A stretch of 41,427 nucleotides of DNA, taken from NCBI GenBank assembly GCA_964494655.1, contig CAZBRM010000004.1, positions 1 through 41,427 of the forward strand, in the 5' to 3' direction. Under the pieces are notes generated by a model. The model had not been told where the DNA came from. It ran no database searches and was given only the letters and a program-made list of their open reading frames with translations. The DNA is from an uncultured Candidatus Saccharibacteria bacterium (lineage in GTDB: Bacteria > Patescibacteriota > Minisyncoccia > Portnoybacterales > UBA2143). The position numbers and the translations under genes are program-made. Position 1 is the first letter of the stretch, and every line of letters starts with the position of its first letter. Positions 1-10,599 of the stretch are shown piece by piece.

Positions 1-437
1 ATATTTCTTAATTTATCTTTAAAATTAAAAATTCTTTGAAAAAACCAATTTCCTTGATTTTGATTAATTAATTCAATTTGTGGATAATAGCTAACTAAAT
101 AAATTTTATCTTTAGCTAGATATTCTTGGTAATCAAAATCTTCAAATACAGCTGGTTCTTGTAATTTGCCAGATATCTCTAATTGATCGCCGTAATAATA
201 TTGAGGATATAACTCTGTAGTAATTAATATTTTACTGGAAATTTCTTTTGTTTTAAATTGAAACTTCTGTTGATTGATCCTTTGTTCTGGTTCTTCAATA
301 ATAATTCCCTTAAGATTAACTTCTTGATCATAATACTGGCTATTTTCTTGATTTGAGGAAGAAATAAAAAAAGAGTAAATAAAAACCCCGCCGATAAACA
401 AGAGACAGAGATAAAGAAAGATTTTAGAAGGAGTCAT
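1..437 (-). CDS. comEC: ComEC/Rec2-family competence protein, N-terminal part (gene runs off the window start)
   Basis: Minus-strand ORF from ATG at 437, absent from the ORF track because it is truncated. It reads MTPSKIFLYLCLLFIGGVFIYSFF (TM helix), then ...KILITTELYPQYYYGDQLEISGKLQEPAVFEDFDYQEYLAKDKIY, the usual pattern of the ComEC N-terminal domain. Confidence 0.55.
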   Translation of the reverse strand, partial: MTPSKIFLYLCLLFIGGVFIYSFFISSSNQENSQYYDQEVNLKGIIIEEPEQRINQQKFQFKTKEISSKILITTELYPQYYYGDQLEISGKLQEPAVFEDFDYQEYLAKDKIYLVSYYPQIELINQNQGNWFFQRIFNFKDKLRN

Positions 438-503
438 TAATTATATGATAGCATAAAAAATATTTAGCGTTACATTTACTTATTAAATTCAAGCCCTGCA
501 TAC

Positions 504-586: not shown

Positions 587-955
587 ATGAAAAAATTAAG
601 CATTATGGATATTAGCGTATCGGCTATTGCGTTAACTATCCTTAGCATCTGGATCGTTTTTGAAAAAGTATTCAAATTTTTCAGCAAATGTAGAATGAAG
701 AAAATCACCGAAATTGAAAAACTAGATGATGCTATAGTGTTTAAAAATGGGCATCGTCATTTATTTACATTAGAAAAAGATGGAAAATACGCAATAAATA
801 TTTCCAGTAGTGGTGTAATAGCTTTTTTATACTTCGGATGTTCCTTGGAAAATGATTACCATGTATTTCGCATTTCACATAAAATCTTGAGAAGACTAAA
901 AGAGATTCTAACTCCATCTAATTTTATGTACGAGCAAGGTCTATACCGGCTATAA
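587..955 (+). CDS. unit 0 cargo: hypothetical protein with N-terminal TM anchor (122 aa)
   Basis: ATG at 587 lies after GGAGGGGG (578-585). The track start at 533 lies inside the promoter/leader. MKKLSIMDISVSAIALTILSIWIVF is hydrophobic. Composition is AT-rich like the host. Confidence 0.6.
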   Translation: MKKLSIMDISVSAIALTILSIWIVFEKVFKFFSKCRMKKITEIEKLDDAIVFKNGHRHLFTLEKDGKYAINISSSGVIAFLYFGCSLENDYHVFRISHKILRRLKEILTPSNFMYEQGLYRL

Positions 956-986: not shown

Positions 987-1030
987 AGAGCTGGTTCAAC
1001 GCAATGTTGTTCTGGCTCTTTTCTTTTCCT
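987..1030 (+). terminator. intrinsic terminator of unit 0 (family X)
   Basis: AGAGCTGG...CTGGCTCT stem followed by TTTCTTTTCC. Confidence 0.6.
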
Positions 1031-1232
1031 AAAATCTAATTACCTCTGTAAATTCCATACTATCTAACAGAACAGTCAGCCGAAGCTGGAGCGCCAATCA
1101 TGAGAATATAAAGAATTAAAAGAGAAATGACAAAATAAAAGGCCTGTTGCCGCCAAAGCCCAATCCCTAAAGCTAAAAAGAGCAATATTTGCGTCATAAT
1201 AATCATGTGGATGGAAGATATGGACTAAATCA
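1031..1232. repeat. long inter-cassette repeat, copy 1 (direct repeat of 5507-5710)
   Basis: AAAATCTAATTACCTC...GCGTCATAATAATCATGTGGATGG is nearly identical to 5507-5710 at an offset of 4476 bp. It replaces the short AAATTGTAGCTATAGAGTTATAGG block. Confidence 0.9.
1060..1206 (-). CDS. 48-aa hydrophobic small ORF inside long repeat copy 1
   Basis: MIIMTQILLFLALGIGLWRQQAFYFVISLLILYILMIGAPASADCSVR has two TM-like segments. It is below the track cut-off and has no clear SD or promoter. It is conserved in copy 2 with mostly synonymous changes. Confidence 0.4.
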   Translation of the reverse strand: MIIMTQILLFLALGIGLWRQQAFYFVISLLILYILMIGAPASADCSVR

Positions 1233-1261
1233 TTGACAAATTAAACTGGGTATGATATAAT
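1233..1261 (+). promoter_or_regulatory. consensus promoter of unit 1
   Basis: TTGACA 1233-1238, 17 nt, TATAAT 1256-1261. Confidence 0.7.
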
Positions 1262-1294: not shown

Positions 1295-1618
1295 ATGAAT
1301 ATTTATGTTAGTGAATCGGTTTCTGAGGTAGTAGATGGCTTGAGGGCTCAAGAGATTCCGGGAATCAACGTTGACTATACGTCTGAACCAGAAGATCCCG
1401 AGAATCCTAATGGGTATGTTGTGCTAAAGAATAAACCTTATGATATTATAGCGGTTGTATCAAGTGTGATTCGCTGGAGGAAGGTTCAGCCGGATTGGGG
1501 ACATCCTAAACAAGCGAAAGCTTGCATTCAGATTCTCTCTTTGGCTCGCAAAATGGAGCTTGAAGGGTCCATAAGGGAAAAAGCGAAAAATCTCTTTTTC
1601 TTTATTAAGGAAGATTAA
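1295..1618 (+). CDS. unit 1 cargo: hypothetical acidic protein (107 aa)
   Basis: AGGAGG 1282-1287 lies 7 nt before the ATG. There is no recognisable family. Confidence 0.65.
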   Translation: MNIYVSESVSEVVDGLRAQEIPGINVDYTSEPEDPENPNGYVVLKNKPYDIIAVVSSVIRWRKVQPDWGHPKQAKACIQILSLARKMELEGSIREKAKNLFFFIKED

Positions 1619-1672: not shown

Positions 1673-1710
1673 AAGCCGCTGGGTCTTCGGACTTAACGGC
1701 TTTTTCTATT
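1673..1710 (+). terminator. intrinsic terminator of unit 1 (family Y, UUCG loop)
   Basis: AAGCCGCTGGGTC-TTCG-GACTTAACGGCTT followed by TTTTCTATTCC. Confidence 0.65.
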
Positions 1711-1712
1711 CC

Positions 1713-1765
1713 AAAATTATAGCTATGGAGTAAGTGGTATATGTATTAGAAATATGTCTAAATCA
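1713..1765. repeat. inter-cassette block, copy A (diverged)
   Basis: AAAATTATAGCTATGGAGTAAGTGGTATATGTATTAGAAATATGTCTAAATCA aligns to the AAATTGTAGCTATAGAGTTATAGG...ATATG..TAAA block. Confidence 0.7.
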
Positions 1766-1794
1766 TTGACAAATTAAACTAGATATGATAATAT
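1766..1794 (+). promoter_or_regulatory. promoter of unit 2
   Basis: TTGACA 1766-1771, 17 nt, TAATAT 1789-1794. The spacer is nearly identical to that of unit 1. Confidence 0.65.
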
Positions 1795-1800
1795 ATAAAT

Positions 1801-1989
1801 ACTTGGAAAGTTACCTAGCGAACTTCCATATTATCAAGCGGACAGCTGGGCCTTCCGAAAGACGTTTCCCGGTCTTCGGAGGGTATAACAGGGATTTTCC
1901 TAAGCGGGAAAAGTGTCCACTGCTTAAGGAGAACGTTAGGACACTACTTCCCCGAGTGAACTTAGAGTAGCTCGGGGATTTTCTTTTCC
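1801..1989 (+). ncRNA. unit 2 cargo: candidate structured ncRNA (~185 nt), family unknown
   Basis: There is no SD and no ATG downstream of the predicted TSS. Stems: TGGAAAGTT/AACTTCCA; CCTTCCGAAAGAC/GTCTTCGGAGGG; TTTTCC/GGAAAA; GTGTCC/GGACAC; and the terminator CCCCGAG/CTCGGGG. Ends are approximate. Confidence 0.5.
1950..1989 (+). terminator. intrinsic terminator of unit 2
   Basis: CCCCGAG-N14-CTCGGGG followed by ATTTTCTTTTCC. Confidence 0.65.
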
Positions 1990-1990
1990 C

Positions 1991-2042
1991 AAATTGTAGC
2001 TATAGAGTTATAGGTATGTGTGTTAGAGATATGAGTTAAACA
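1991..2042. repeat. inter-cassette block, copy B
   Basis: AAATTGTAGCTATAGAGTTATAGGTATGTGTGTTAGAGATATGAGTTAAACA. Confidence 0.85.
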
Positions 2043-2070
2043 TTGACAAAATATATGTATATGGTATGAT
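2043..2070 (+). promoter_or_regulatory. promoter of unit 3
   Basis: TTGACA 2043-2048, 16 nt, TATGAT 2065-2070. Confidence 0.55.
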
Positions 2071-2125
2071 AAGGATACAAATTAAATAGTTCTTAATCTT
2101 TTAACAACTAAATCAGGAGGGAAAA

Positions 2126-3004
2126 ATGGAAAAGGTAAGGGTTATATTACATGTAATGTTTGGAGGTGGCTCAAATGATTCTCATTATGGCGCTAATGGT
2201 TATGTACATCTAGAACTACAGGAAAAAGCGGGGGTCGAAATCGATTTCGTGTCTTTCTCCGGAACGTATCTTCACGGCAACGACCTTGAACGTTTCCTAA
2301 GAGAATGCGAAGATGCTCAGGTTATCGTTCTTGATGCCTGGAACCATCCGTTAAACAAAGATTATGGTAGCCGAGAATGGAACGATCCTCATGAGAGTAT
2401 GGCTAGAATCGCTAGACAAATATCAAGGATAAACCCCTCAGCGCAAATTTTCGCCGATCTTATGGAAAGCTTTAACAAAGTCGCTGTTCACGAAATTGCG
2501 GAACCAATCAAAACATGGACAGATAAAAAAATCGTTGGGGCGATTAAACGAAGCGTATTCAAAAAAGGTCAGCCTACGGTTTTAGTCTTTGACGACACCG
2601 AGAAACATCAGGACGCAGCAGACGAACAGCTTTCCGCCTACAATCTCGTTATCGCTAGAACCTACGATAAAGCTGAAACACTTATCGCCAAAAAAAGATT
2701 CGATTACGTCCTACTCGATCTCCTGGTTCCGGCCAGCGATAAAACTCTGGGGTCAAAAGGAAAAAAGTATGTCGGACAAGAAATGCCTCTCACGCCGCTA
2801 CTTGCTTTCCTGGCTCTTAAACAGGGAATTAAGAAGATTGGCATTCTTACCGACGCAAACCATCATGATCATCCAGCTTCTGCTGCTGTCGACATTTTCG
2901 GAAGCCCATTCGTCATAGGCAATGCCAAGATACAGATTTCTAACCGTGGCGTTACTTCAGAAGGAGTCAAAGACTGGAAAGGTTTGATGGATCAACTCAA
3001 TTAA
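2126..3004 (+). CDS. unit 3 cargo: hypothetical 292-aa protein; the C-terminal half has a CheY-like receiver-fold pattern
   Basis: AGGAGGG 2115-2121 lies before the ATG. TVLVFDD...FDYVLLDLLVP...IGILTD resembles receiver beta1/beta3/beta4 signatures. The N-terminal half also looks flavodoxin-like (RVILHVMFGGG, AQVIVLDAW). The fold call is tentative. Confidence 0.7.
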   Translation: MEKVRVILHVMFGGGSNDSHYGANGYVHLELQEKAGVEIDFVSFSGTYLHGNDLERFLRECEDAQVIVLDAWNHPLNKDYGSREWNDPHESMARIARQISRINPSAQIFADLMESFNKVAVHEIAEPIKTWTDKKIVGAIKRSVFKKGQPTVLVFDDTEKHQDAADEQLSAYNLVIARTYDKAETLIAKKRFDYVLLDLLVPASDKTLGSKGKKYVGQEMPLTPLLAFLALKQGIKKIGILTDANHHDHPASAAVDIFGSPFVIGNAKIQISNRGVTSEGVKDWKGLMDQLN

Positions 3005-3023
3005 GTTCTATAATCTCAACTAA

Positions 3024-3061
3024 AAGAGCCGGAATAAACAATCGTTCTGGCTTTTTTTCTT
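3024..3061 (+). terminator. intrinsic terminator of unit 3 (family X)
   Basis: AAGAGCCGG...CTGGCTTTT stem running into TTTTTTTCTTTCC. Confidence 0.6.
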
Positions 3062-3066
3062 TCCCT

Positions 3067-3118
3067 AAAACCGTGCTATAGACATAGTGGCATGTGGATG
3101 AAAGATATGTCTAAATCC
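3067..3118. repeat. inter-cassette block, copy C (variant)
   Basis: AAAACCGTGCTATAGACATAGTGGCATGTGGATGAAAGATATGTCTAAATCC. It is closest to copy G. Confidence 0.8.
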
Positions 3119-3146
3119 TTGACAAATTATATCAGTATGTTATAAT
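3119..3146 (+). promoter_or_regulatory. promoter of unit 4
   Basis: TTGACA 3119-3124, 16 nt, TATAAT 3141-3146. Confidence 0.7.
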
Positions 3147-3183
3147 GTAAACAATATTAACAATTAAATAAGAGGAGAAGACA

Positions 3184-3525
3184 ATGGCATCAATACCAAA
3201 AGAGGACATTCCAAAGACAGCCGAAGCAATCAGTAAAGCAATTCCAGAAAAAAATCGTTACGACAAGCCAATTTGGCAAGGAGTTCTCAAGCTCATTGAG
3301 GAAAGTGAATTCGGCAAGAAGAATGCGCAATCTGATATCGTATCTCCATTGCCCGAGGGCAGAAGCGAGACGGAAGAGATGATGTCTGGCAGTTTTGATG
3401 GGGTGCAAATAGAAATGATGAGATTCTGCAATTCTGTTCTTGGCAGTTGTGGATCCGTTTCGATGGAGCCATACACGGCAGGATTGGGCACACGTTCAAT
3501 GACTCTTACGTTCGAAGCCAATTAA
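3184..3525 (+). CDS. unit 4 cargo: hypothetical protein (113 aa)
   Basis: AGAGGAG lies before the ATG. The leader ACAATATTAACAATTAAATAAGAGGAG is homologous to those of units 1 and 8. No family is recognised. Confidence 0.65.
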   Translation: MASIPKEDIPKTAEAISKAIPEKNRYDKPIWQGVLKLIEESEFGKKNAQSDIVSPLPEGRSETEEMMSGSFDGVQIEMMRFCNSVLGSCGSVSMEPYTAGLGTRSMTLTFEAN

Positions 3526-3527
3526 TC

Positions 3528-3593
3528 AGAGGCCAGTTAACCTCTCTCGCAAAAAGAAGAGGTCAAATAAATATACTGGCCTCTTTTCTTTTG
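3528..3593 (+). terminator. intrinsic terminator of unit 4 (family X, long)
   Basis: AGAGGCCAG (3528-3536) pairs with CTGGCCTCT (3576-3584), with an inner ACCTCT/AGAGGT stem, then TTTTCTTTTG. Confidence 0.6.
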
Positions 3594-3595
3594 TT

Positions 3596-3647
3596 AAATT
3601 GTAGCTATAGAGTTATAGGCATGTGGATGAGGAGTATGATTTAAAGA
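3596..3647. repeat. inter-cassette block, copy D
   Basis: AAATTGTAGCTATAGAGTTATAGGCATGTGGATGAGGAGTATGATTTAAAGA. Confidence 0.85.
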
Positions 3648-3677
3648 TTGACAGATTATAGATTGGTGTGGTATAAC
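3648..3677 (+). promoter_or_regulatory. promoter of unit 5
   Basis: TTGACA 3648-3653, 18 nt, TATAAC 3672-3677. Confidence 0.55.
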
Positions 3678-3683
3678 CATGAT

Positions 3684-3703
3684 ATCGTAAAACGGTTTAC
3701 GAT
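3684..3703 (+). promoter_or_regulatory. perfect hairpin in the unusually long leader of unit 5
   Basis: ATCGTAAA-ACGG-TTTACGAT forms an 8-bp stem. A second stem, ATCTG/CAGAT, lies just downstream. Confidence 0.45.
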
Positions 3704-3765
3704 CTACCAGTTATCTGATAGTCCAGATATTTAAAAACTTCAAATCTTACTAAAGGAGGGTAAAA

Positions 3766-4137
3766 ATGACTAAAAAAGCTAACGAGGAGAAGGCCAAACT
3801 TAAGGAATTGTGGATATTGTTATTTGAAGAACCACAAAGCTTAAGTAATGAGCAAATCACACGTTTACTTGAAGCGGAAAAAGAGCTTCAAGATGTCGTA
3901 TACTATGTCTATCATCGGTTTCCAGAAATGATGAAGGAAGTCCAAAGGTATTGGGCGAGAAAAAACGAGCTGTCTCAATTGCCTATTGAGGAATTACAAG
4001 AAAAGATGCAAAAAATATCGAATAGAAGAGCATCTATTCTGAAAAGCGTACCTGATGAAGAACTCAGTGATTCATTTTTTGAATCTTCACTTCTCGATTC
4101 TGATGAAAATATCCTCTATGAGCTTTTGAAAGAATGA
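3766..4137 (+). CDS. unit 5 cargo: hypothetical acidic, probably helical protein (123 aa)
   Basis: AAAGGAGGG lies before the ATG. The protein is rich in E/K/L. No family is recognised. Confidence 0.65.
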   Translation: MTKKANEEKAKLKELWILLFEEPQSLSNEQITRLLEAEKELQDVVYYVYHRFPEMMKEVQRYWARKNELSQLPIEELQEKMQKISNRRASILKSVPDEELSDSFFESSLLDSDENILYELLKE

Positions 4138-4163
4138 GACACAAGAGTCTAACTCTTAATATT

Positions 4164-4200
4164 AAGCCACCAGTCTTCGGACTTGGTGGCTTTTTTCTTT
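4164..4200 (+). terminator. intrinsic terminator of unit 5 (family Y, UUCG loop)
   Basis: AAGCCACCAGTC-TTCG-GACTTGGTGGCTT followed by TTTTCTTT. Confidence 0.7.
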
Positions 4201-4203
4201 TCT

Positions 4204-4256
4204 AAATTGTAGCTATAGAGTTATAGGCATGTGGATGAGGGATATGGGTTATATCC
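4204..4256. repeat. inter-cassette block, copy E
   Basis: AAATTGTAGCTATAGAGTTATAGGCATGTGGATGAGGGATATGGGTTATATCC. Confidence 0.85.
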
Positions 4257-4285
4257 TTGACGGAATGTGTGTATATGTGTATAAT
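4257..4285 (+). promoter_or_regulatory. promoter of unit 6
   Basis: TTGACG 4257-4262, 17 nt, TATAAT 4280-4285. Confidence 0.65.
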
Positions 4286-4332
4286 GATGGTATAATTAAA
4301 TAGAATTCAAATCTGAAAAAAGGAGGGTAAAA

Positions 4333-4584
4333 ATGGAAATCATATTTAACGAAGAAGAAGCAGTGTCTTGGGGTGATCCAGATGATCCTAGGAATACCCC
4401 AGAAAAGCTGGTTGAACGTAGAAGAGCTGGTCTCATTAAGCTGGGAGAATTCGTGGGAGCCGAAAGGATAGAATTTGTCCCGGAACATAAAAGGGATATT
4501 TATATCCTTACAAAAGGCGGAAAGAAATTATCGATTATCGCCAGAGGAAACGGGTTTGACGGAGGATGGCTTGAAGTAGAATAA
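4333..4584 (+). CDS. unit 6 cargo: hypothetical protein (83 aa)
   Basis: AAGGAGGG lies before the ATG. The leader ...CAAATCT...AAAGGAGGGTAAAAATG is homologous to that of unit 5. Confidence 0.65.
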   Translation: MEIIFNEEEAVSWGDPDDPRNTPEKLVERRRAGLIKLGEFVGAERIEFVPEHKRDIYILTKGGKKLSIIARGNGFDGGWLEVE

Positions 4585-4618
4585 TCTGATTTTCTTCAAC
4601 TGCCTATCTAATTAATTA

Positions 4619-4658
4619 AAGGGTCAGTTCGGTAAACGTTCTGGCTCTTTTCTATTCC
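4619..4658 (+). terminator. intrinsic terminator of unit 6 (family X)
   Basis: GGGTCAG...CTGGCTC stem (with G-U pairs) followed by TTTTCTATTCC. Confidence 0.55.
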
Positions 4659-4660
4659 CT

Positions 4661-4713
4661 AAATTGTAGCTATAGACATATAGGTATATGGATAAGGAAT
4701 ATGAATTAAACTC
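4661..4713. repeat. inter-cassette block, copy F
   Basis: AAATTGTAGCTATAGACATATAGGTATATGGATAAGGAATATGAATTAAACTC. Confidence 0.85.
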
Positions 4714-4742
4714 TTGACAAATCTATTCACATATAATAATAT
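4714..4742 (+). promoter_or_regulatory. promoter of unit 7
   Basis: TTGACA 4714-4719, 17 nt, TAATAT 4737-4742. Confidence 0.6.
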
Positions 4743-4748
4743 TATAAT

Positions 4749-4857
4749 AATTGGATGTAAATTTGTGCCACCGGTCAAAGAACGTATAAGGCACGGAGCA
4801 CTTACAACATCCATACAATAATATAAAGGGTCAAGGCAAAGCTTTGACCTTTTTTTT
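4749..4857 (+). ncRNA. unit 7 cargo: candidate small structured RNA (~110 nt), family unknown
   Basis: There is no SD and no ORF. A long irregular hairpin is formed by GGATGT...GTGCC-loop-GGCAC...ACATCC, followed by the terminator. Ends are approximate. Confidence 0.5.
4829..4857 (+). terminator. intrinsic terminator of unit 7
   Basis: GGTCAAGGC-AAA-GCTTTGACC followed by a run of 8 T. Confidence 0.75.
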
Positions 4858-4908
4858 ATTCCTATGTATTAGTCTATAATAAATAACCTGCTTTTTTCTT
4901 TTCCTCCC
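4858..4908 (+). other. collapsed or empty unit remnant
   Basis: ATTCC-TATGTATTAG-TCTATAATAAATAA-CCTGCTTTTTTCTTTTCC contains fragments of block copy A, a TATAAT and half a terminator, with no cargo between them. Confidence 0.35.
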
Positions 4909-4961
4909 AAAACCATGCTATAGACATAGTGGTATGTGGATGAGGAATATGGGCTTAATCA
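4909..4961. repeat. inter-cassette block, copy G (variant)
   Basis: AAAACCATGCTATAGACATAGTGGTATGTGGATGAGGAATATGGGCTTAATCA. Confidence 0.8.
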
Positions 4962-4990
4962 TTGACTTTTAATATTTTGTGTTGTATGGT
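4962..4990 (+). promoter_or_regulatory. promoter of unit 8
   Basis: TTGACT 4962-4967, 17 nt, TATGGT 4985-4990. Confidence 0.5.
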
Positions 4991-5026
4991 AGAGACAACA
5001 TTAACAATTGAATAAGGAGATAAGAA

Positions 5027-5446
5027 ATGGATAAGGAAATGAAAGAAAGGATTAAGGAGAATCTTAGTTTGATCGGCAAAAGAGAAAAAACTGGAAATTG
5101 GAGCAAACTCATCAATGTCCACGATAATGTTTGGGGACATGCTGATAACATTAGGGGCAACATCTTAAACATCTGGGACAACATCTCAAACATTAGGGGC
5201 GACGTCTCAAACATCAGGGGCAACGTCTCAAGAATCAGTGGCGACGTCACAAACATCTGGGGCGACGTCTCAAACATCAGGGGCGACATCTCAGATATCA
5301 GTGGCTACTTCTCAAGAATCAGTGGCGACGTCACAAACATCTGGGGCGACGTCTCAGATATCAGTGGCTACGTCTCAAGAATCAGTGGCGACGTCACAAA
5401 CATCAGTGGCGACGTCTCAGATATTATCAAAGTCCTCGAAGATTAG
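5027..5446 (+). CDS. unit 8 cargo: heptad-repeat protein (139 aa)
   Basis: AAGGAG lies before the ATG. Residues 37-134 are 14 tandem heptads with consensus G-D-V-S-N-I-(R/W/S). Confidence 0.7.
   Translation: MDKEMKERIKENLSLIGKREKTGNWSKLINVHDNVWGHADNIRGNILNIWDNISNIRGDVSNIRGNVSRISGDVTNIWGDVSNIRGDISDISGYFSRISGDVTNIWGDVSDISGYVSRISGDVTNISGDVSDIIKVLED
5135..5428 (+). repeat. 14 x 21-bp tandem repeat inside the unit 8 CDS, with a 63-bp super-period
   Basis: GGCGACGTCTCAAACATCAGG-type units. Units 8-10 and 11-13 are nearly identical triplets. Other frames on both strands stay open across it. Confidence 0.9.
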
Positions 5447-5468
5447 GGATTAGAAGGCAAACTACAAG

Positions 5469-5500
5469 AGGCTGACTCAACAAGAGTTGGCCTTTTTTCT
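5469..5500 (+). terminator. intrinsic terminator of unit 8 (family X)
   Basis: AGGCTGACTC-AACAA-GAGTTGGCCT followed by TTTTTCTATTC. It is close to the unit 10 terminator. Confidence 0.65.
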
Positions 5501-5506
5501 ATTCTC

Positions 5507-5710
5507 AAAATCTAATTACCTCCTCAAATTCCATACTATCCCACAGAACAGTCAGCCGAAGCTGGAGCGCCAATCATGAGGATATAAAGAATTAAAAGAG
5601 AAATGACAAAATAAAAGGCCTGTTGCCGCCAAAGCCCAATCCCTAAAGCTAAAAAGAGCAATATTTGCGTCATAATAATCATGTGAATGGTAGAAATATG
5701 TCTAAATCCA
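5507..5710. repeat. long inter-cassette repeat, copy 2 (direct repeat of 1031-1232)
   Basis: Nearly identical to copy 1 across the ORF48 segment and more diverged at both ends. Confidence 0.9.
5536..5682 (-). CDS. 48-aa hydrophobic small ORF, copy 2
   Basis: Same ORF as 1060-1206. There are three nucleotide differences: two synonymous (Ile, Val) and one R-to-G change at the last codon. Confidence 0.4.
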   Translation of the reverse strand: MIIMTQILLFLALGIGLWRQQAFYFVISLLILYILMIGAPASADCSVG

Positions 5711-5745
5711 TTGACATTAATTATTTTTTACTACATGCTATTATT
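5711..5745 (+). promoter_or_regulatory. promoter region of unit 9 (TTGACA kept, probable extended -10)
   Basis: TTGACA is at 5711-5716, but there is no -10 at 16-18 nt. TGCTATTAT at 5737-5745 fits an extended -10 (TGnTATAAT). Confidence 0.4.
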
Positions 5746-5781
5746 AAAAGTAGTTCTTAATATATAAAGGAGGAGGATGCA

Positions 5782-6033
5782 ATGGAACAAGAAATTTTTG
5801 AAATTATAAAAAATTCTCAAATATTACCAGAAATGCTGATTTTATTTGGCACTACAATCCTTATAACTACTTCTGCATGGACACTCTTATTTCCTATTGG
5901 AAAAGGAAAATATCTTGTTTCGTCATGGTATTACTTTTGGAGAATTATGCTCTTTGGAATGTTTGCTTCTTTTCTTTTGGTACTTACTGTTATAGTTGCT
6001 GCTTATATACAATGTTCTTTTAAGAGCATATAG
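5782..6033 (+). CDS. unit 9 cargo: small membrane protein, 2-3 TM (83 aa)
   Basis: AAAGGAGGAGG lies before the ATG. Hydrophobic stretches include LILFGTTILITTSAWTLLF and IMLFGMFASFLLVLTVIVAAYI. Composition is AT-rich like the host. No terminator precedes the next gene. Confidence 0.6.
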   Translation: MEQEIFEIIKNSQILPEMLILFGTTILITTSAWTLLFPIGKGKYLVSSWYYFWRIMLFGMFASFLLVLTVIVAAYIQCSFKSI

Positions 6034-6085
6034 CTTGACACGAAATATCTTTTCTAACTATTAGACAAAAAGGAGGGTTATAAAA

Positions 6086-6379
6086 ATGGAGATTAGAGTT
6101 GTTTTAGACTTACCGGGACTGACAATGAAGAAAATTTTTGATGTGCCCAAGGAATTAGTTCCTAGAAAGGACGATGGGGTTAAATTTTGGGAAGAAAAAA
6201 GAAAAGACGCCGTTATGTTGGGTTATGCAACTGCTTTTTCGGTAACACGTGACCTAACTCAGGAAGATAAGCCTCCGATAGAGGTTTTTCTTAAGCCGGA
6301 GAGTGATGATTTAACCAAAGCGTGTCTGGAAGAATTTGAGAGGGTACTATCAAAACAAGGCTGGCAAATCCAGCGTTAA
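6086..6379 (+). CDS. unit 10 cargo: hypothetical protein (97 aa)
   Basis: AAAGGAGGG lies before the ATG. A weak TTGACA is at 6035-6040. It may be co-transcribed with unit 9. Confidence 0.6.
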   Translation: MEIRVVLDLPGLTMKKIFDVPKELVPRKDDGVKFWEEKRKDAVMLGYATAFSVTRDLTQEDKPPIEVFLKPESDDLTKACLEEFERVLSKQGWQIQR

Positions 6380-6400
6380 ATCTTTTTGCCGAGTCAACGA

Positions 6401-6436
6401 AGAGGCCGACTCAACGCAGTTGGCCTCTTTTTATTT
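6401..6436 (+). terminator. intrinsic terminator of unit 10 (family X)
   Basis: AGAGGCCGAC-TCAACGCA-GTTGGCCTCT forms a 10-bp stem, followed by TTTTATTTCC. Confidence 0.7.
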
Positions 6437-6439
6437 CCC

Positions 6440-6469
6440 AAATTGTAGCTATAGAGTTATAGGTATGTG
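6440..6469. repeat. terminal half-copy of the inter-cassette block (copy H)
   Basis: AAATTGTAGCTATAGAGTTATAGGTATGTG is identical to copy B up to ATGTG. After that the sequence is unique (CATTCCCGAGACGG). Confidence 0.85.
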
Positions 6470-6598
6470 CATTCCCGAGACGGCAGTGATATGCCTTGTT
6501 CCAGTAATATTTAATTTTTCTTTTAAAACCATTCCAAAACCATGCCTTAGAAAGATGAACAGGCGTGATAGTGCGTCCTCTTGCTCAAAACCAGGCAT
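6449..6598 (-). CDS. 49-codon ORF translationally coupled to cobO, ending inside repeat copy H
   Basis: The ATG overlaps the cobO stop (TAATG). The product is MPGFEQEDALSRLFIFLRHGFGMVLKEKLNITGTRHITAVSGMHIPITL. It is below the track cut-off and its coding status is unproven. Confidence 0.35.
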   Translation of the reverse strand: MPGFEQEDALSRLFIFLRHGFGMVLKEKLNITGTRHITAVSGMHIPITL

Positions 6599-7104
6599 TA
6601 GAACTCGATTCCTTTTCTTGGTTTTATTGCTTTAGTGTAATAATGTTTAATTTCTTTCATTTCTGTAACTAAATCTGCTGCTTGAATAAGTTTTTTAGAA
6701 GCGTTACGGCCAGTTAGGACGAGCTCTGTTTTTGACGAAGTTTCTTTTATTAATTCCAGAATATCTTTTACTTTAATTAAGTCAAAGTAATTTACCATAT
6801 TCATTTCATCCAAAATTATTAAGTCGTATTTTTTACTTTTAATTGCTTTTTGGGCAAAATTAAAACCTTGACTTGCAAGGTTAAAATCTTTTTTTAATAA
6901 TTTACCTTTACTGACAAATCCTTTTCTGCCAAAGATTTTTACTTCAAAATTCTTTATTTTTTTAATCGCCTCTATTTCTGAACTCTTACCGTCTTTCAAA
7001 AACTGAATTAATAAAACTTTTTTACCAGCGCCTACAGATCGTAAACCAAGACCCAAAGCTGCAGTTGTTTTGCCTTTTGCATCACCTGTATAAATTTGAA
7101 GCAT
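6598..7104 (-). CDS. cobO: cob(I)yrinic acid a,c-diamide / cob(I)alamin adenosyltransferase (CobA/CobO/BtuR family)
   Basis: P-loop YTGDAKGKTTAALG, and ILDEMNMV...LVLTGR typical of the family. Confidence 0.8.
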   Translation of the reverse strand: MLQIYTGDAKGKTTAALGLGLRSVGAGKKVLLIQFLKDGKSSEIEAIKKIKNFEVKIFGRKGFVSKGKLLKKDFNLASQGFNFAQKAIKSKKYDLIILDEMNMVNYFDLIKVKDILELIKETSSKTELVLTGRNASKKLIQAADLVTEMKEIKHYYTKAIKPRKGIEF

Positions 7105-7116
7105 GTTAATTATAAA

Positions 7117-10100
7117 TTATACATTACAAGTCGGACAGCTTCCAGGAGGCAAATCTGGAATATCAGGCGAAGGATCACGCAATTCAGGAGAAACATCTTT
7201 TTCTTTAACCATTTTCTTATCTGCTTTTGGCAAAGATCCTTGCTCTTTACCTTTAATATTTAAAACTTGCTGTTTTCTGCTTTCGTTTCTGTAAAAAGTT
7301 ACACCCTTGCATCCTAAATCATAAGACATAATATATGCTTTTCTAATATCGTCTTCTGAAGCGGAATAAGGAAAATTAATTGTCTTACTTGTGGCATTAT
7401 CAACATATTTTTGAAAAGCTGCCTGCATTTTTATATGATCCTCCGGCTTAATATCTAAAGCAGTAACAAAAATCTTTTTTATATCAGTTGGAATTTCTTT
7501 AATATCCTGAATACTTCCTTTTCTTGAAATTTCTTCAATAAGTTTTTTAGACCAAAAACCTCGTTCTTTGGCTATTTCTTCAAAAATAGAATTAACTTCA
7601 ACTAATTCTTGATCGCCTAAAACATGTTTTCTAGTATAAGCGACAGCAAAAAGCGGTTCAATAGCTGATGAGGCGCCAGCAATAATACCTATTGTTCCTG
7701 TTGGAGCAATTGTAGTTATAGTCGCATTCCTAACTTTAGGCATATTTTTTTCATTATAAATACTATCTTTTAAATTAGGAAAAACTTCTCTTTGCTCAGC
7801 TAATCCAACTGATGCTTTTCTGCCTTCTTCTTGAATAAATTTCATCACACTTTTACCAACCATTAGCGCTTTTCTGGAATTATACGGAATCCTTAACCTG
7901 ATAAGCATATCTGTAAAACCCATTACGCCTAAACCTATTTTCCTATTCCCTCTAGTTAATTTTTCTATTTCAGGCAGAGGATAACGATTAACTTCAATAA
8001 CATTATCTAAAAAATGAACTGCGTTAATAGTTGTTTGCTTAAGCTTGTCCCAATCAATTTCCCAGATTTTTGACCGAGCAGTTTTTTTCTTAATTATTTT
8101 GCTTAAATTGATACTACCTAAGTTACAGCTCTCGAAAGGAAGCAATGGCTGCTCCCCGCATTGTCGACTGATGATTCCACTCATTAAAGGTTTTTTAGAT
8201 AATTTAGTTTTGCCATTAGGTTTAGTGATATAAGCAACAGTATGAAATTCATCTACGGTGATATTATAAACATCTTCATTGCCATAAAATTTTATAGATT
8301 TAACTTTATGATTATGCATTATCAACTCTTCTCTGAAAGCATTATAGCCACCAAAAGTACTCCTTAAATCTCCAGAATAACCAAAATTATTTACATATTT
8401 CTTAAACTCTAAATAATTAGGCATATTTCTTTTTTCTTTGATAAATTTGATCCCTAATTTATAAAGTTCTCTCCTCAATTTATCTCTGTTTTTCTTTTTT
8501 GCATCAATAACACTATCTGTATTTCTAATACTATTAACATAGCTAGCTCTACAGGATCTTGAACAAAAACTCTTATTTATATTTTCTTTATATATTATTT
8601 CCTTACTACATTTTAAGCACGCCGACTTAATATAAGAATAGATAGTTTTTGATTTACTTATTTTTTCTTTAATTTCAGGATGTTTCTTATATAGTTCAAT
8701 AATTCTTAAACTTTGATCTTTTCTATTTTTAGGATTTTTAAAATACAAACTAGTTAAATCGCCAATTAATTTTTTTGTTGTCTCTCTATGCTTTCGACCA
8801 AACATGCCATTCCCCTTGCCAGATTTTAATTTACTCATCTTTTCTCTATAAATATCTTTTTCTTGATCTGATAATTTTTGCCACCATTTTCCTTTCATTA
8901 TATTTTGTTCTCCAGTTTGATGTAAACTATCATGAGCGCTTTGGCTCATAACTTCTAAATTCTTAATATCATTATCCAGCCCATTAAAATTTTTATGATG
9001 AACTACTTCGTTTGGATATTTCTTAATCTTTCTGCCAAGTAAAAGCTCCGCAATCATTCTATGCTCGGATTTAGCTCTTTTACCATTATTTTGTGTTATC
9101 CCCCAATAAACACAATTTTTCCTAGTCGCTGTATATTGAAACTTATTAAAAGGCATCAAGCTTACACCTGGTTTTAAATCTTTCAATTTAACATCATTAT
9201 TTTTTCTATCTTTAAATTTATGATCTTCAGTAGCAATCAGATAACTATTATCATCAAAGACAACTTTCCAAACAGGAACATTAGTTCTTGTTTTCCTTGG
9301 ATTTCGTCCCATTCGAATTTGCACTTTTCCATTACCATAACAATATACTGGAATATCTTTTTTTTCTTTAACCAATTGTTTTATTGAAACACAATTTCTA
9401 CCATCAGCCACACCTACCAAGGTATCTCCAACTACGCATGGATTAGTGCTTTCTATCTTACCTAATTTTGGAGTTGGATTGTCTCTATTAATTCTGTCAA
9501 TGAAAATAACTCCTGGCTCTCCATTTTTCCACGCATAATCAACAATTAAATCAAAAACCATATTAGCGTCTAATTGGCCTGAAATTTGACCGTCTCGAGG
9601 ATTTATTAAATTATATTTCTTCTTCTTTTTAACCGCCTCCATAAATTCATCAGTCAAAGCAACGGAAATATTAAAATTATTTAAAACCCCTTCTTCTGAT
9701 TTAGCTGTAATAAATTCCAATATATCGGGATGATCAACATTTAAAATTCCCATATTAGCTCCACGTCTTTTGCCGCCCTGTTTTATTACATCAGTAGCCG
9801 CATTAAAAACACTCATAAAAGACAATGGACCAGAAGAAGCTCCTTGAGTTGATTTAATATTATCTCCCCTTGGGCGCAAATGAGAGAAATTAAAACCTGT
9901 ACCGCCACCACTTTTGTGAACCAAAGCGGTATTTTTAATTGCTTCAAAAATTTCCTCCATTGAATCACCTACTGGGAGAACAAAACAACCACTAAGTTGC
10001 TGGAGTACGCCTCCAGCATTCATTAATGTTGGAGAATTAGGTAAAAATTCCAAAGATGCCATCATTTTATAGAATTTTTCGCCAATATCAAAAAGTTCAT

Positions 10101-10599
10101 CATCTGAAATTGAAGGATTAAAAAACGACTCAGCTGAAGCAATATTAGCGGCTACCCGCTGAAATAATTGCTGAGGCGTTTCAATTATTTTTCCTTGTTC
10201 ATCTTTTTTTAAATATCTTGATTCAAGAACTTTTAAGGCATTAGGCATGAGCTTTGTTTTTACATTACGGCTTAAAAGCCACCACTTAGCATCTCTAAGC
10301 TCTTTTCTTTTTTGACGATAAAGACCGTATAACTCCGCAATATCTTTTTGGCCTTCTTTAGCTAATGTTTCAATAACTACATCCTGAAGTTGTTCTACTT
10401 TTGGGATTTCTTCTTTAAAACGCTTATTTAGAATTTCAACTACACTATTAGAAATTTTTTGGGCTAATTTTTTATCCTCTTTTCCTCCCGCCTGAAGAGC
10501 TTTTAAAATAGCTTCTGTAATTTTAACTTGATTAAAATTAACGATTCTACCATCTCTTTTTTTAACACTCTGTATATATTTTACATTCTTTTTAGACAT
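7117..10599 (-). CDS. nrdJ: adenosylcobalamin-dependent (class II) ribonucleotide reductase with N-terminal ATP-cone, interrupted by an intein
   Basis: ATP-cone KKRDGRIVNFNQVKITEAI. RNR core motifs are present. The finger loop ESTNP-[intein]-CGEQPLLPFESCNLGS is split. The C-terminus carries a CPTC pair. Confidence 0.9.
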   Translation of the reverse strand: MSKKNVKYIQSVKKRDGRIVNFNQVKITEAILKALQAGGKEDKKLAQKISNSVVEILNKRFKEEIPKVEQLQDVVIETLAKEGQKDIAELYGLYRQKRKELRDAKWWLLSRNVKTKLMPNALKVLESRYLKKDEQGKIIETPQQLFQRVAANIASAESFFNPSISDDELFDIGEKFYKMMASLEFLPNSPTLMNAGGVLQQLSGCFVLPVGDSMEEIFEAIKNTALVHKSGGGTGFNFSHLRPRGDNIKSTQGASSGPLSFMSVFNAATDVIKQGGKRRGANMGILNVDHPDILEFITAKSEEGVLNNFNISVALTDEFMEAVKKKKKYNLINPRDGQISGQLDANMVFDLIVDYAWKNGEPGVIFIDRINRDNPTPKLGKIESTNPCVVGDTLVGVADGRNCVSIKQLVKEKKDIPVYCYGNGKVQIRMGRNPRKTRTNVPVWKVVFDDNSYLIATEDHKFKDRKNNDVKLKDLKPGVSLMPFNKFQYTATRKNCVYWGITQNNGKRAKSEHRMIAELLLGRKIKKYPNEVVHHKNFNGLDNDIKNLEVMSQSAHDSLHQTGEQNIMKGKWWQKLSDQEKDIYREKMSKLKSGKGNGMFGRKHRETTKKLIGDLTSLYFKNPKNRKDQSLRIIELYKKHPEIKEKISKSKTIYSYIKSACLKCSKEIIYKENINKSFCSRSCRASYVNSIRNTDSVIDAKKKNRDKLRRELYKLGIKFIKEKRNMPNYLEFKKYVNNFGYSGDLRSTFGGYNAFREELIMHNHKVKSIKFYGNEDVYNITVDEFHTVAYITKPNGKTKLSKKPLMSGIISRQCGEQPLLPFESCNLGSINLSKIIKKKTARSKIWEIDWDKLKQTTINAVHFLDNVIEVNRYPLPEIEKLTRGNRKIGLGVMGFTDMLIRLRIPYNSRKALMVGKSVMKFIQEEGRKASVGLAEQREVFPNLKDSIYNEKNMPKVRNATITTIAPTGTIGIIAGASSAIEPLFAVAYTRKHVLGDQELVEVNSIFEEIAKERGFWSKKLIEEISRKGSIQDIKEIPTDIKKIFVTALDIKPEDHIKMQAAFQKYVDNATSKTINFPYSASEDDIRKAYIMSYDLGCKGVTFYRNESRKQQVLNIKGKEQGSLPKADKKMVKEKDVSPELRDPSPDIPDLPPGSCPTCNV
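8161..9438 (-). mobile_element. 426-aa intein with an HNH homing-endonuclease module, inserted before the catalytic Cys of NrdJ (residues 388-813)
   Basis: Block A CVVGDTLV; block B ATEDH; HNH VVHHKNFNGLDNDIKNLEVMSQSAHDSLH; NUMOD3-like NGMFGRKHRETTKKLI; Cys4 CLKC...CSRSC; block F VYNITVDEFHTVAY. It ends ...SGIISRQ followed by extein Cys. Confidence 0.85.

Follow-up and report, generated by a model that had tools for sequence, protein, structure and literature searches.

The window, the whole 41,427-nucleotide stretch of DNA analysed here, carries the following in order when read along its minus strand: an RNR gene (10599..7117), cobA (7104..6598), a comEC relic (6598..6449), an array of cassettes and the N-terminal part of comEC (440..3). 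In eight relatives RNR is followed by cobA, comEC and an MBL-fold gene, and no other gene separates the abutting cobA and comEC. The array consists of ~6 kb of plus-strand cassettes, each equipped with a near-consensus sigma-70 promoter, an SD and a terminator, and none of nine cassette proteins has a Pfam family above cut-off. The cobA-proximal relic ends ...SGMH at the point where the last short spacer unit begins. Codons 147-436 of comEC and the MBL gene are absent from the 490-kb, 88.9%-complete assembly. We rejected a simple single insertion that splits comEC as the origin of the array in this genome, because an intact comEC N-terminus is found at the far array end. Two "long" spacers of the array, between cobA and the resident comEC, hold the two copies of a 48-codon minus-strand ORF (Table 1), and it is this ORF that the present analysis concerns.

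Table 1. Features of the cassette array and its surroundings in the window (positions on the forward strand).
Feature	Position	Strand	Remarks
Resident comEC, codons 1-146 (DUF4131 domain)	3..440	-	Intact, runs off the contig end
Conserved 62-nt tail, copy A	1016..1077	-	Adjoins the terminator of cassette 587..955
48-codon ORF, copy A (twin)	1060..1206	-	C-terminal end DCSVR
comEC-derived 129 nt, copy A	1078..1206	-	Codons ~198-240 of ComEC, Competence domain
Decayed comEC side and promoter TTGACA-17-TATAAT (1233-1261)	1207..1261	+	Serves cassette 1295..1618
Eight short spacer units	1699..6482	+	Starts at 1699, 1976, 3052, 3581, 4189, 4646, 4894 and 6425
Conserved 62-nt tail, copy B	5492..5553	-	Adjoins the terminator of cassette 5027..5446
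48-codon ORF, copy B	5536..5682	-	43 comEC codons, 5 tail codons DCSVG and TAG
comEC-derived 129 nt, copy B	5554..5682	-	95% identity to G002 ComEC (tblastn); 1 difference from copy A
Decayed comEC codons ~176-197, read antisense	5683..5716	+	CATGTG core; AGCTACAAT motif deleted
comEC relic next to cobA, codons ~150-197	6449..6598	-	47% identical to G002 ComEC
cobA/cobO, ATP:corrinoid adenosyltransferase	6598..7104	-	Lies directly upstream of comEC in eight relatives

Several further properties of the region were observed. Two array slots, 1800-1975 and 4745-4860, have a promoter and a terminator and contain no SD-led ORF of any length; these may be RNA-only cassettes. Cassette 5027-5446, immediately upstream of long unit B, encodes a 139-aa protein that consists mostly of 7-residue repeats (G-D-V-S-N-I-R/W/S), encoded by at least 13 tandem 21-nt copies. 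Outside the array, the RNR ORF (7117-10599, 1160 aa) has a long insert with HNH-like motifs and an intein-like look.

A repeat search of the window yielded the two-copy repeat D4, 206 nt in length and 94% identical between 1016-1221 and 5492-5697, and it is this repeat that identifies the twin of the ORF. The initial annotation had reported a 48-codon minus-strand ORF in both long repeats, and the ORF listing and the alignment agree on its presence in each. Pairwise alignments show that copies A and B of the ORF differ at exactly 3 positions: 5541 (c/t; last ORF codon GGA vs AGA), 5542 (c/a; Val47 codon GTG vs GTT) and 5581 (g/a; Ile34 codon ATC vs ATT). Directly 3' of the ORF there are 3 further differences, and 5' of the ATG there are many together with an indel, so that the pattern originally described, with two synonymous changes, one in the last codon and the changes on either side of the ORF, was reproduced in full. 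Two of the three differences within the ORF fall in its last five codons, which are not comEC-derived. Furthermore, finding two synonymous changes among three is not significant (chance ~0.16, assuming by our own estimate that roughly 1/4 of random changes are synonymous), and as a sign of coding constraint this ratio is statistically weak.

Comparison with relatives reveals the source of the ORF. Residues 1-43 are 95% identical to residues 199-237 of ComEC from G002, a genome of the same genus (tblastn). At this locus of G002 (L004), the match is located inside a 436-aa protein that reads ...AISGMHMIIMTQILLFLALGIGLWRGQ... and, over a longer stretch, ...LNISGTRHIVAISGMH-MIIMTQILLFLALGIGLWRGQ...GAPASA-VRAGIMAG... 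The protein carries the Pfam domains DUF4131 and Competence (200 bits) and is therefore ComEC, and the ATG of the ORF is therefore the internal Met198 of ComEC, in the context ...ISGMH|MIIMTQ... ORF codons 1-43 correspond to comEC codons ~198-240, inside Pfam Competence. The homology ends at codon 43, and the last five codons (D-C-S-V-R/G) and the stop are foreign to comEC. Among 100 relatives, every match to residues 1-43 with E<=1e-3 sits within a ComEC frame of 219-534 codons, the shortest of these frames being cut by contig ends, and at this threshold none of the 100 genomes has the ORF as an independent small ORF. A single ComEC match per genome was obtained for 32 of the 35 family genomes, with identities of up to 95%. 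A collection of 5.8 billion proteins of 26-84 aa contained one matching cluster, P0001, which is itself a comEC fragment and matches PF03772 positions 26-77 with 26.9 bits (cut-off 23). The 48-aa ORF alone has no Pfam match above cut-off, as expected from its length.

The two TM-like segments pointed out in the initial annotation are borne out by this assignment, as both correspond to real ComEC membrane helices of the Competence domain. The ORF thus has homology to the Competence domain (PF03772), and it lacks the full ComEC architecture of DUF4131 plus a Competence domain of ~265 residues in about 430 aa. With 43 of ~436 codons present and both neighbouring parts missing or decayed, such a fragment cannot form a channel. 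In our assessment the ORF is very probably a duplicated comEC relic, not a gene, with an integration core at one edge and a conserved tail at the other. It owes its coding-like look to comEC, and this look hence provides no evidence for a new small toxin or holin.

The 62-nt tail that follows the comEC-derived part opens with a 9-nt insertion, GACTGTTCT, which is followed by a GTTGGA/GTTAGA-like stretch, a stop and then ...TAATTAGATTTT. Directly after the insertion the tail reads GTT AGA/GGA TAG where comEC has GTT AGA GCA. The tail is 81-92% identical across lineages. A search for its pattern in 59 genomes of the order found it only in the genome of the window, two scans of the genome collection gave 0 matches to the tail, and viral contigs gave 0 matches to either the tail or the integrase-arm motif described below. 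As the tail is conserved beyond neutral decay, selection or recent mobility probably affects part of the unit. A tail made up purely of decayed comEC is doubtful, because it is better conserved across lineages than the comEC part.

Each of the eight short spacer units contains an integrase-arm-like ATTGTAGCTATAGAG motif, a CATGTG core and a decayed comEC side with a promoter. The right-hand part is the same in all units, short and long: CATGTG, then GATGAGGAATATGG..., then a -35 box. On the other strand this part corresponds to decayed comEC codons ~176-197, from which a deletion of 9-11 nt takes out AGCTACAAT. The segment 5683..5716 of the plus strand, common to all short units, accordingly holds the -35 box TTGACA (5711-5716) of the next cassette. 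To the left of CATGTG, the short units have AAATTGTAGCTATAGAGTTATAGG, a place taken in the long units by comEC codons 240-198 and the tail. The good comEC stretch between core and tail is therefore exactly the ORF. The possibility that short and long units are unrelated was considered and rejected, given their common derived core and the same deletion.

What this core represents is seen in G025. Here comEC is split at the corresponding codons by a 13.3-kb island (locus L036, G025:C2, 3241-16580), with an N-terminal part of codons 1-198 and a C-terminal part of codons 189-427. Two or three cassettes bearing the spacer units of the window array open the island. Among its products are a large serine recombinase of 525 aa (L036:13666-15243) with the domains Resolvase, Recombinase and Zn_ribbon_recom, a pair of DNA methyltransferases, one an N6_N4_Mtase with HTH and the other of the D12 class, and a 347-aa protein that matches SduA_C (Shedu) weakly; several further ORFs have no family. 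The attP site, reconstructed from the two island junctions, forms an imperfect palindrome around ATATGCAT, with 19 of 30 positions symmetric, a level equalled by 1 of 20000 shuffles. The distance between the core and an ATTGTxGC motif is 15 nt in each attP arm and 10 nt in comEC, where the motif provides the codons for I-V-A; only one attB arm shows the motif. In serine integrases of the A118 family, attP is an imperfect palindrome of ~50-60 bp, and the distal (zinc-ribbon) motif of attB lies 5 bp nearer the centre than that of attP (PMC3783163). The left part of the short units is therefore an integrase attP arm. A recombinase element inserted at the comEC position of the ORF, the dyad symmetry of attP and the 5-bp shift together place the 5' boundary of the ORF at the crossover core of a large-serine-recombinase attachment site inside comEC. 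No Resolvase-family protein or homologue of the G025 enzyme, and thus no cognate recombinase, was found in the genome of the window (G000, 88.9% complete), and no serine recombinase was found in G001 or G034 either. The single tyrosine recombinase of G000 (PF00589) is encoded on contig C16, not on the contig of the array.

The same architecture recurs in other genomes. G034, which belongs to another genus, has the MBL gene, a full comEC, five plus-strand cassettes with window-type units, a last unit that is a fusion, and cobA; this last unit is fused to comEC codons 176-197 that are 91% identical to G034's own comEC. G001, of the same genus as the window, has a smaller array with a counterpart of cassette 1295..1618 (82% identical) and is without the first cassette and long unit A. 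In G001 (L025, G001:C30) the comEC upstream region is joined straight to the promoter of that counterpart, and the break points relative to the window (window 491/1232, L025 506/518) are at TTGACAAAT -35 boxes. 

We also scanned metagenomes for comEC codons joined to the tail, which yielded three real contigs (L039, L040 and L042); a further hit, L041, was rejected as a chance match in G+C-rich DNA. L039 starts with the end of cobA, after which come comEC codons 176-237 plus tail, one cassette and comEC codons 1-198, which stop at a short-unit junction; two more cassettes precede a full comEC, and the MBL gene is last. Three comEC pieces thus lie on one 4.6-kb contig (Ga0222658_1004888, 1-4614), the full gene encoding 435 aa, and the contig looks like a record of successive insertions, each leaving the previous comEC N-terminal part behind. 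In L040 an L039-type fragment has lost 1 nt, which puts it out of frame; the loss falls in a T-run and may stem from faulty assembly. In L042 the fragment is diverged, and the tail adjoins phage-like genes in comEC orientation, not a cassette terminator. These genes of L042 (287-3451) encode a sigma-factor-like 302-aa protein and a small regulator-like product. It was also observed that comEC codon 146-151 is where two genomes have a contig end (window 1-3; L025 1-3), and codon 191-194 where two genomes have a contig start (ends of L007 and L020). Assembly breaks therefore recur near the attachment site, and known repeats explain them only partly.

The fragments allow copying to be distinguished from selection on a peptide. 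Between copies A and B, the comEC-derived part differs at 1 of 129 sites, and only 1 of ~30 synonymous sites is changed, in contrast to the flanks, where 9 of 62 sites of the tail and 11 of 43 on the promoter side differ (15-26%). Protein selection alone would leave the synonymous sites about as diverged as the flanks, and the single change among ~30 thus argues for recent copying. The L039 fragment shows 96.9% identity to the full comEC of its own contig, against 80% to the window copies; for the L042 fragment the values are 99.2% to the comEC of G028 and 71.5% to the L039 fragment. Overall, fragments from different lineages are 71-80% alike. Their divergence between lineages (pS 0.59-0.90, pN 0.08-0.15) covers a range like that of real comEC orthologues (pS 0.71-0.90, pN 0.04-0.12). 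As the fragments match the comEC of their own host while the flanks diverge, the pattern reflects copying and not selection on the peptide. Since codons 198-240 of the resident comEC are unassembled in the genome of the window, we infer from L039 and L042 that gene conversion has taken place there as well. The coding constraint proposed in the initial annotation therefore holds in one respect, as the sequence did evolve under such constraint, but the constraint is that of full-length comEC, and the near-identity of the two window copies reflects copying. The annotation had further suggested that additional copies be inspected for frameshifts or stops: the frame is broken in L040, at the T-run, and open in L039 and L042. 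It is consequently open in four of the five known fragment copies, one of which is about 25% diverged.

These observations suggest a scheme for the origin of the ORF. The integration core inside comEC sets the 5' edge of the fragment and the 62-nt tail its 3' edge, with the conserved tail supplying the five foreign codons and the stop. An array of single-gene cassettes, each with its promoter and terminator, has built up between cobA and the resident comEC. The comEC part presumably stays open because the functional resident comEC overwrites it repeatedly, or served as its template not long ago, in gene conversion or recombination events confined between the core and the 9-nt insertion, while the flanks drift. 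The peptide would then either not be made or, if made, be without function.

The rival reading closest to the initial annotation is that the ORF is expressed as a two-helix membrane peptide, whether a type I toxin, a holin-like peptide or a ComEC-derived micro-protein that disturbs the ComEC channel. The frame is open in both window copies, L039 and L042, the product is strongly hydrophobic, and a gene caller predicted P0001, the L039-type version. However, no GGAG/GAGG-type SD is present within 30 nt upstream of the ATG of either copy, whereas all eight cassette ORFs read (587, 1295, 2126, 3184, 3766, 4333, 5027 and 5782) have one. The best minus-strand promoter near the ORF matches 9 of 12 positions, which is background (27 found vs 19+/-4.7 in shuffles). 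The annotators' own failure to find a convincing SD or promoter is hence confirmed for both copies, and an RBS and promoter of its own, expected of a type I toxin or small-peptide gene, are lacking, as is conservation as an independent ORF in any of the 100 relatives. Minus-strand transcripts could arise by read-through from the cobA operon. The start codon also varies in position between copies, from the ATG at Met198 in the window to a GTG seven codons earlier in L039/P0001, the L040 copy is frameshifted, and synonymous sites are as conserved as other sites between the window copies. Expression as a membrane peptide is thus very unlikely, and the toxin, holin-like or small membrane regulator assignment is withdrawn in favour of a comEC fragment. 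The initial annotation had regarded an RNA-level or DNA-level function as equally possible. A structured RNA on either strand could draw on the conservation itself and on nothing further: folding is no better than for shuffled sequence, whichever copy and strand is taken (z +0.09 to +1.18), Rfam gave no match at the ORF and one tRNA only in the whole window, and on the plus strand the segment falls between a terminator (5466-5496) and the next promoter. We give this reading practically no credence. Of the two functions, it is the DNA-level one that lies closer to the evidence. 

A DNA role would mean that the comEC piece is kept as a spare or decoy attachment site, or as a homology patch to the resident comEC, so that integrase-borne elements or cassettes could come in, move out or be lost while functional comEC survives; this is compatible with the relic reading. 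The start of the piece coincides exactly with the recombinase core and the comEC-side arm is complete, the comEC parts of A and B are nearly identical while their flanks differ, and the tail is well conserved between lineages. Same-genus genomes vary in cassette content at unit boundaries, and insertions sit in relic copies where the array has a full comEC (L035, L039). Against this, the other half-site is without the ATTGTxGC motif in both long units, the core reads CATGTGG/A where the native one has CATGTGC or CATATGC, the genome of the window yielded no serine recombinase, and among 59 genomes of the order the long unit was found in the window's own alone. Passive gene conversion, moreover, explains the near-identity equally well. 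A DNA role is therefore conceivable but on the whole unlikely, and its more specific form, in which the 129-nt piece is a "safe-harbour" copy of the attachment region held identical to the live comEC by gene conversion, is decidedly doubtful. Finally, the repeat might be an assembly artefact in which resident comEC reads were mis-joined into the array, and the contig does end inside comEC with the remainder of the gene unassembled. However, the copies have distinct flanks and a common derived tail, the comEC-tail junction is found in three independent metagenome contigs, and equivalent arrays occur in the independently assembled G034, G001 and G025, which makes an artefact extremely improbable.

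The reading of the ORF as a duplicated comEC relic strikes a spurious entry from the list of candidate small toxin and holin genes, and it illustrates a general trap: an internal fragment of a membrane-protein gene, if duplicated at an integration site and kept in step with the live gene, mimics a constrained small hydrophobic ORF. In this family of very small genomes comEC is a recurrent large-serine-recombinase landing site, and in several genera it anchors variable arrays of self-promoted cassettes encoding family-less proteins. The ORF fragment marks the bounds of such an array and may be a place of array rearrangement. Were the "safe-harbour" proposal true, elements and cassettes could stack, swap and be deleted beside comEC without inactivating DNA uptake, and the array would represent a new type of cassette platform in ultra-small bacteria, resembling an integron but autonomous in its promoters.

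Known systems share some of these properties. Listeria A118/phi10403S-type elements integrate into comK, so that a competence gene is the target in both cases, and the reconstructed G025 attP shares with A118-type elements the palindrome and the 5-bp shift. In contrast to those elements, there is no sign of regulated excision here, and the ORF is a truncated duplicate of the target rather than half of a split gene. Serine-recombinase prophages also integrate inside comEC of Streptococcus pyogenes, as in the streptococcal elements Phi1207.3/Tn1207.3 and Phi10394.4 (PMC4260502), and G025 likewise has a serine-recombinase island in comEC, at ...SGMH|M... The hosts belong to different phyla, and the likeness concerns the target gene. 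Furthermore, the window has an array of cassettes with their own promoters and is without a recombinase, and most array genomes keep a full comEC beside the relics. In size (48 aa) and in its two hydrophobic helices the ORF resembles type I toxins and small holin-like peptides, but it differs from them in descending from an internal part of a 436-aa channel protein. The array is like an integron in its one-directional stacks of mostly single family-less ORFs, its recombination-site-like spacers and a content that varies among close relatives. Unlike integrons, each cassette has its own near-consensus promoter and terminator. No IntI gene adjoins the array, and the spacers are 70-95% identical to one another and derived from comEC and an integrase arm, and therefore not attC-like. 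Partial duplications of the target gene are known to remain at integration sites, for example in tandem islands at tRNA genes. As in such tandem islands, direct repeats of a piece of the target mark successive insertions in the array and bracket variable cargo; in contrast to them, the repeated piece is here an internal protein-coding one, which yields a deceptive ORF and appears to have been homogenised with the live gene.
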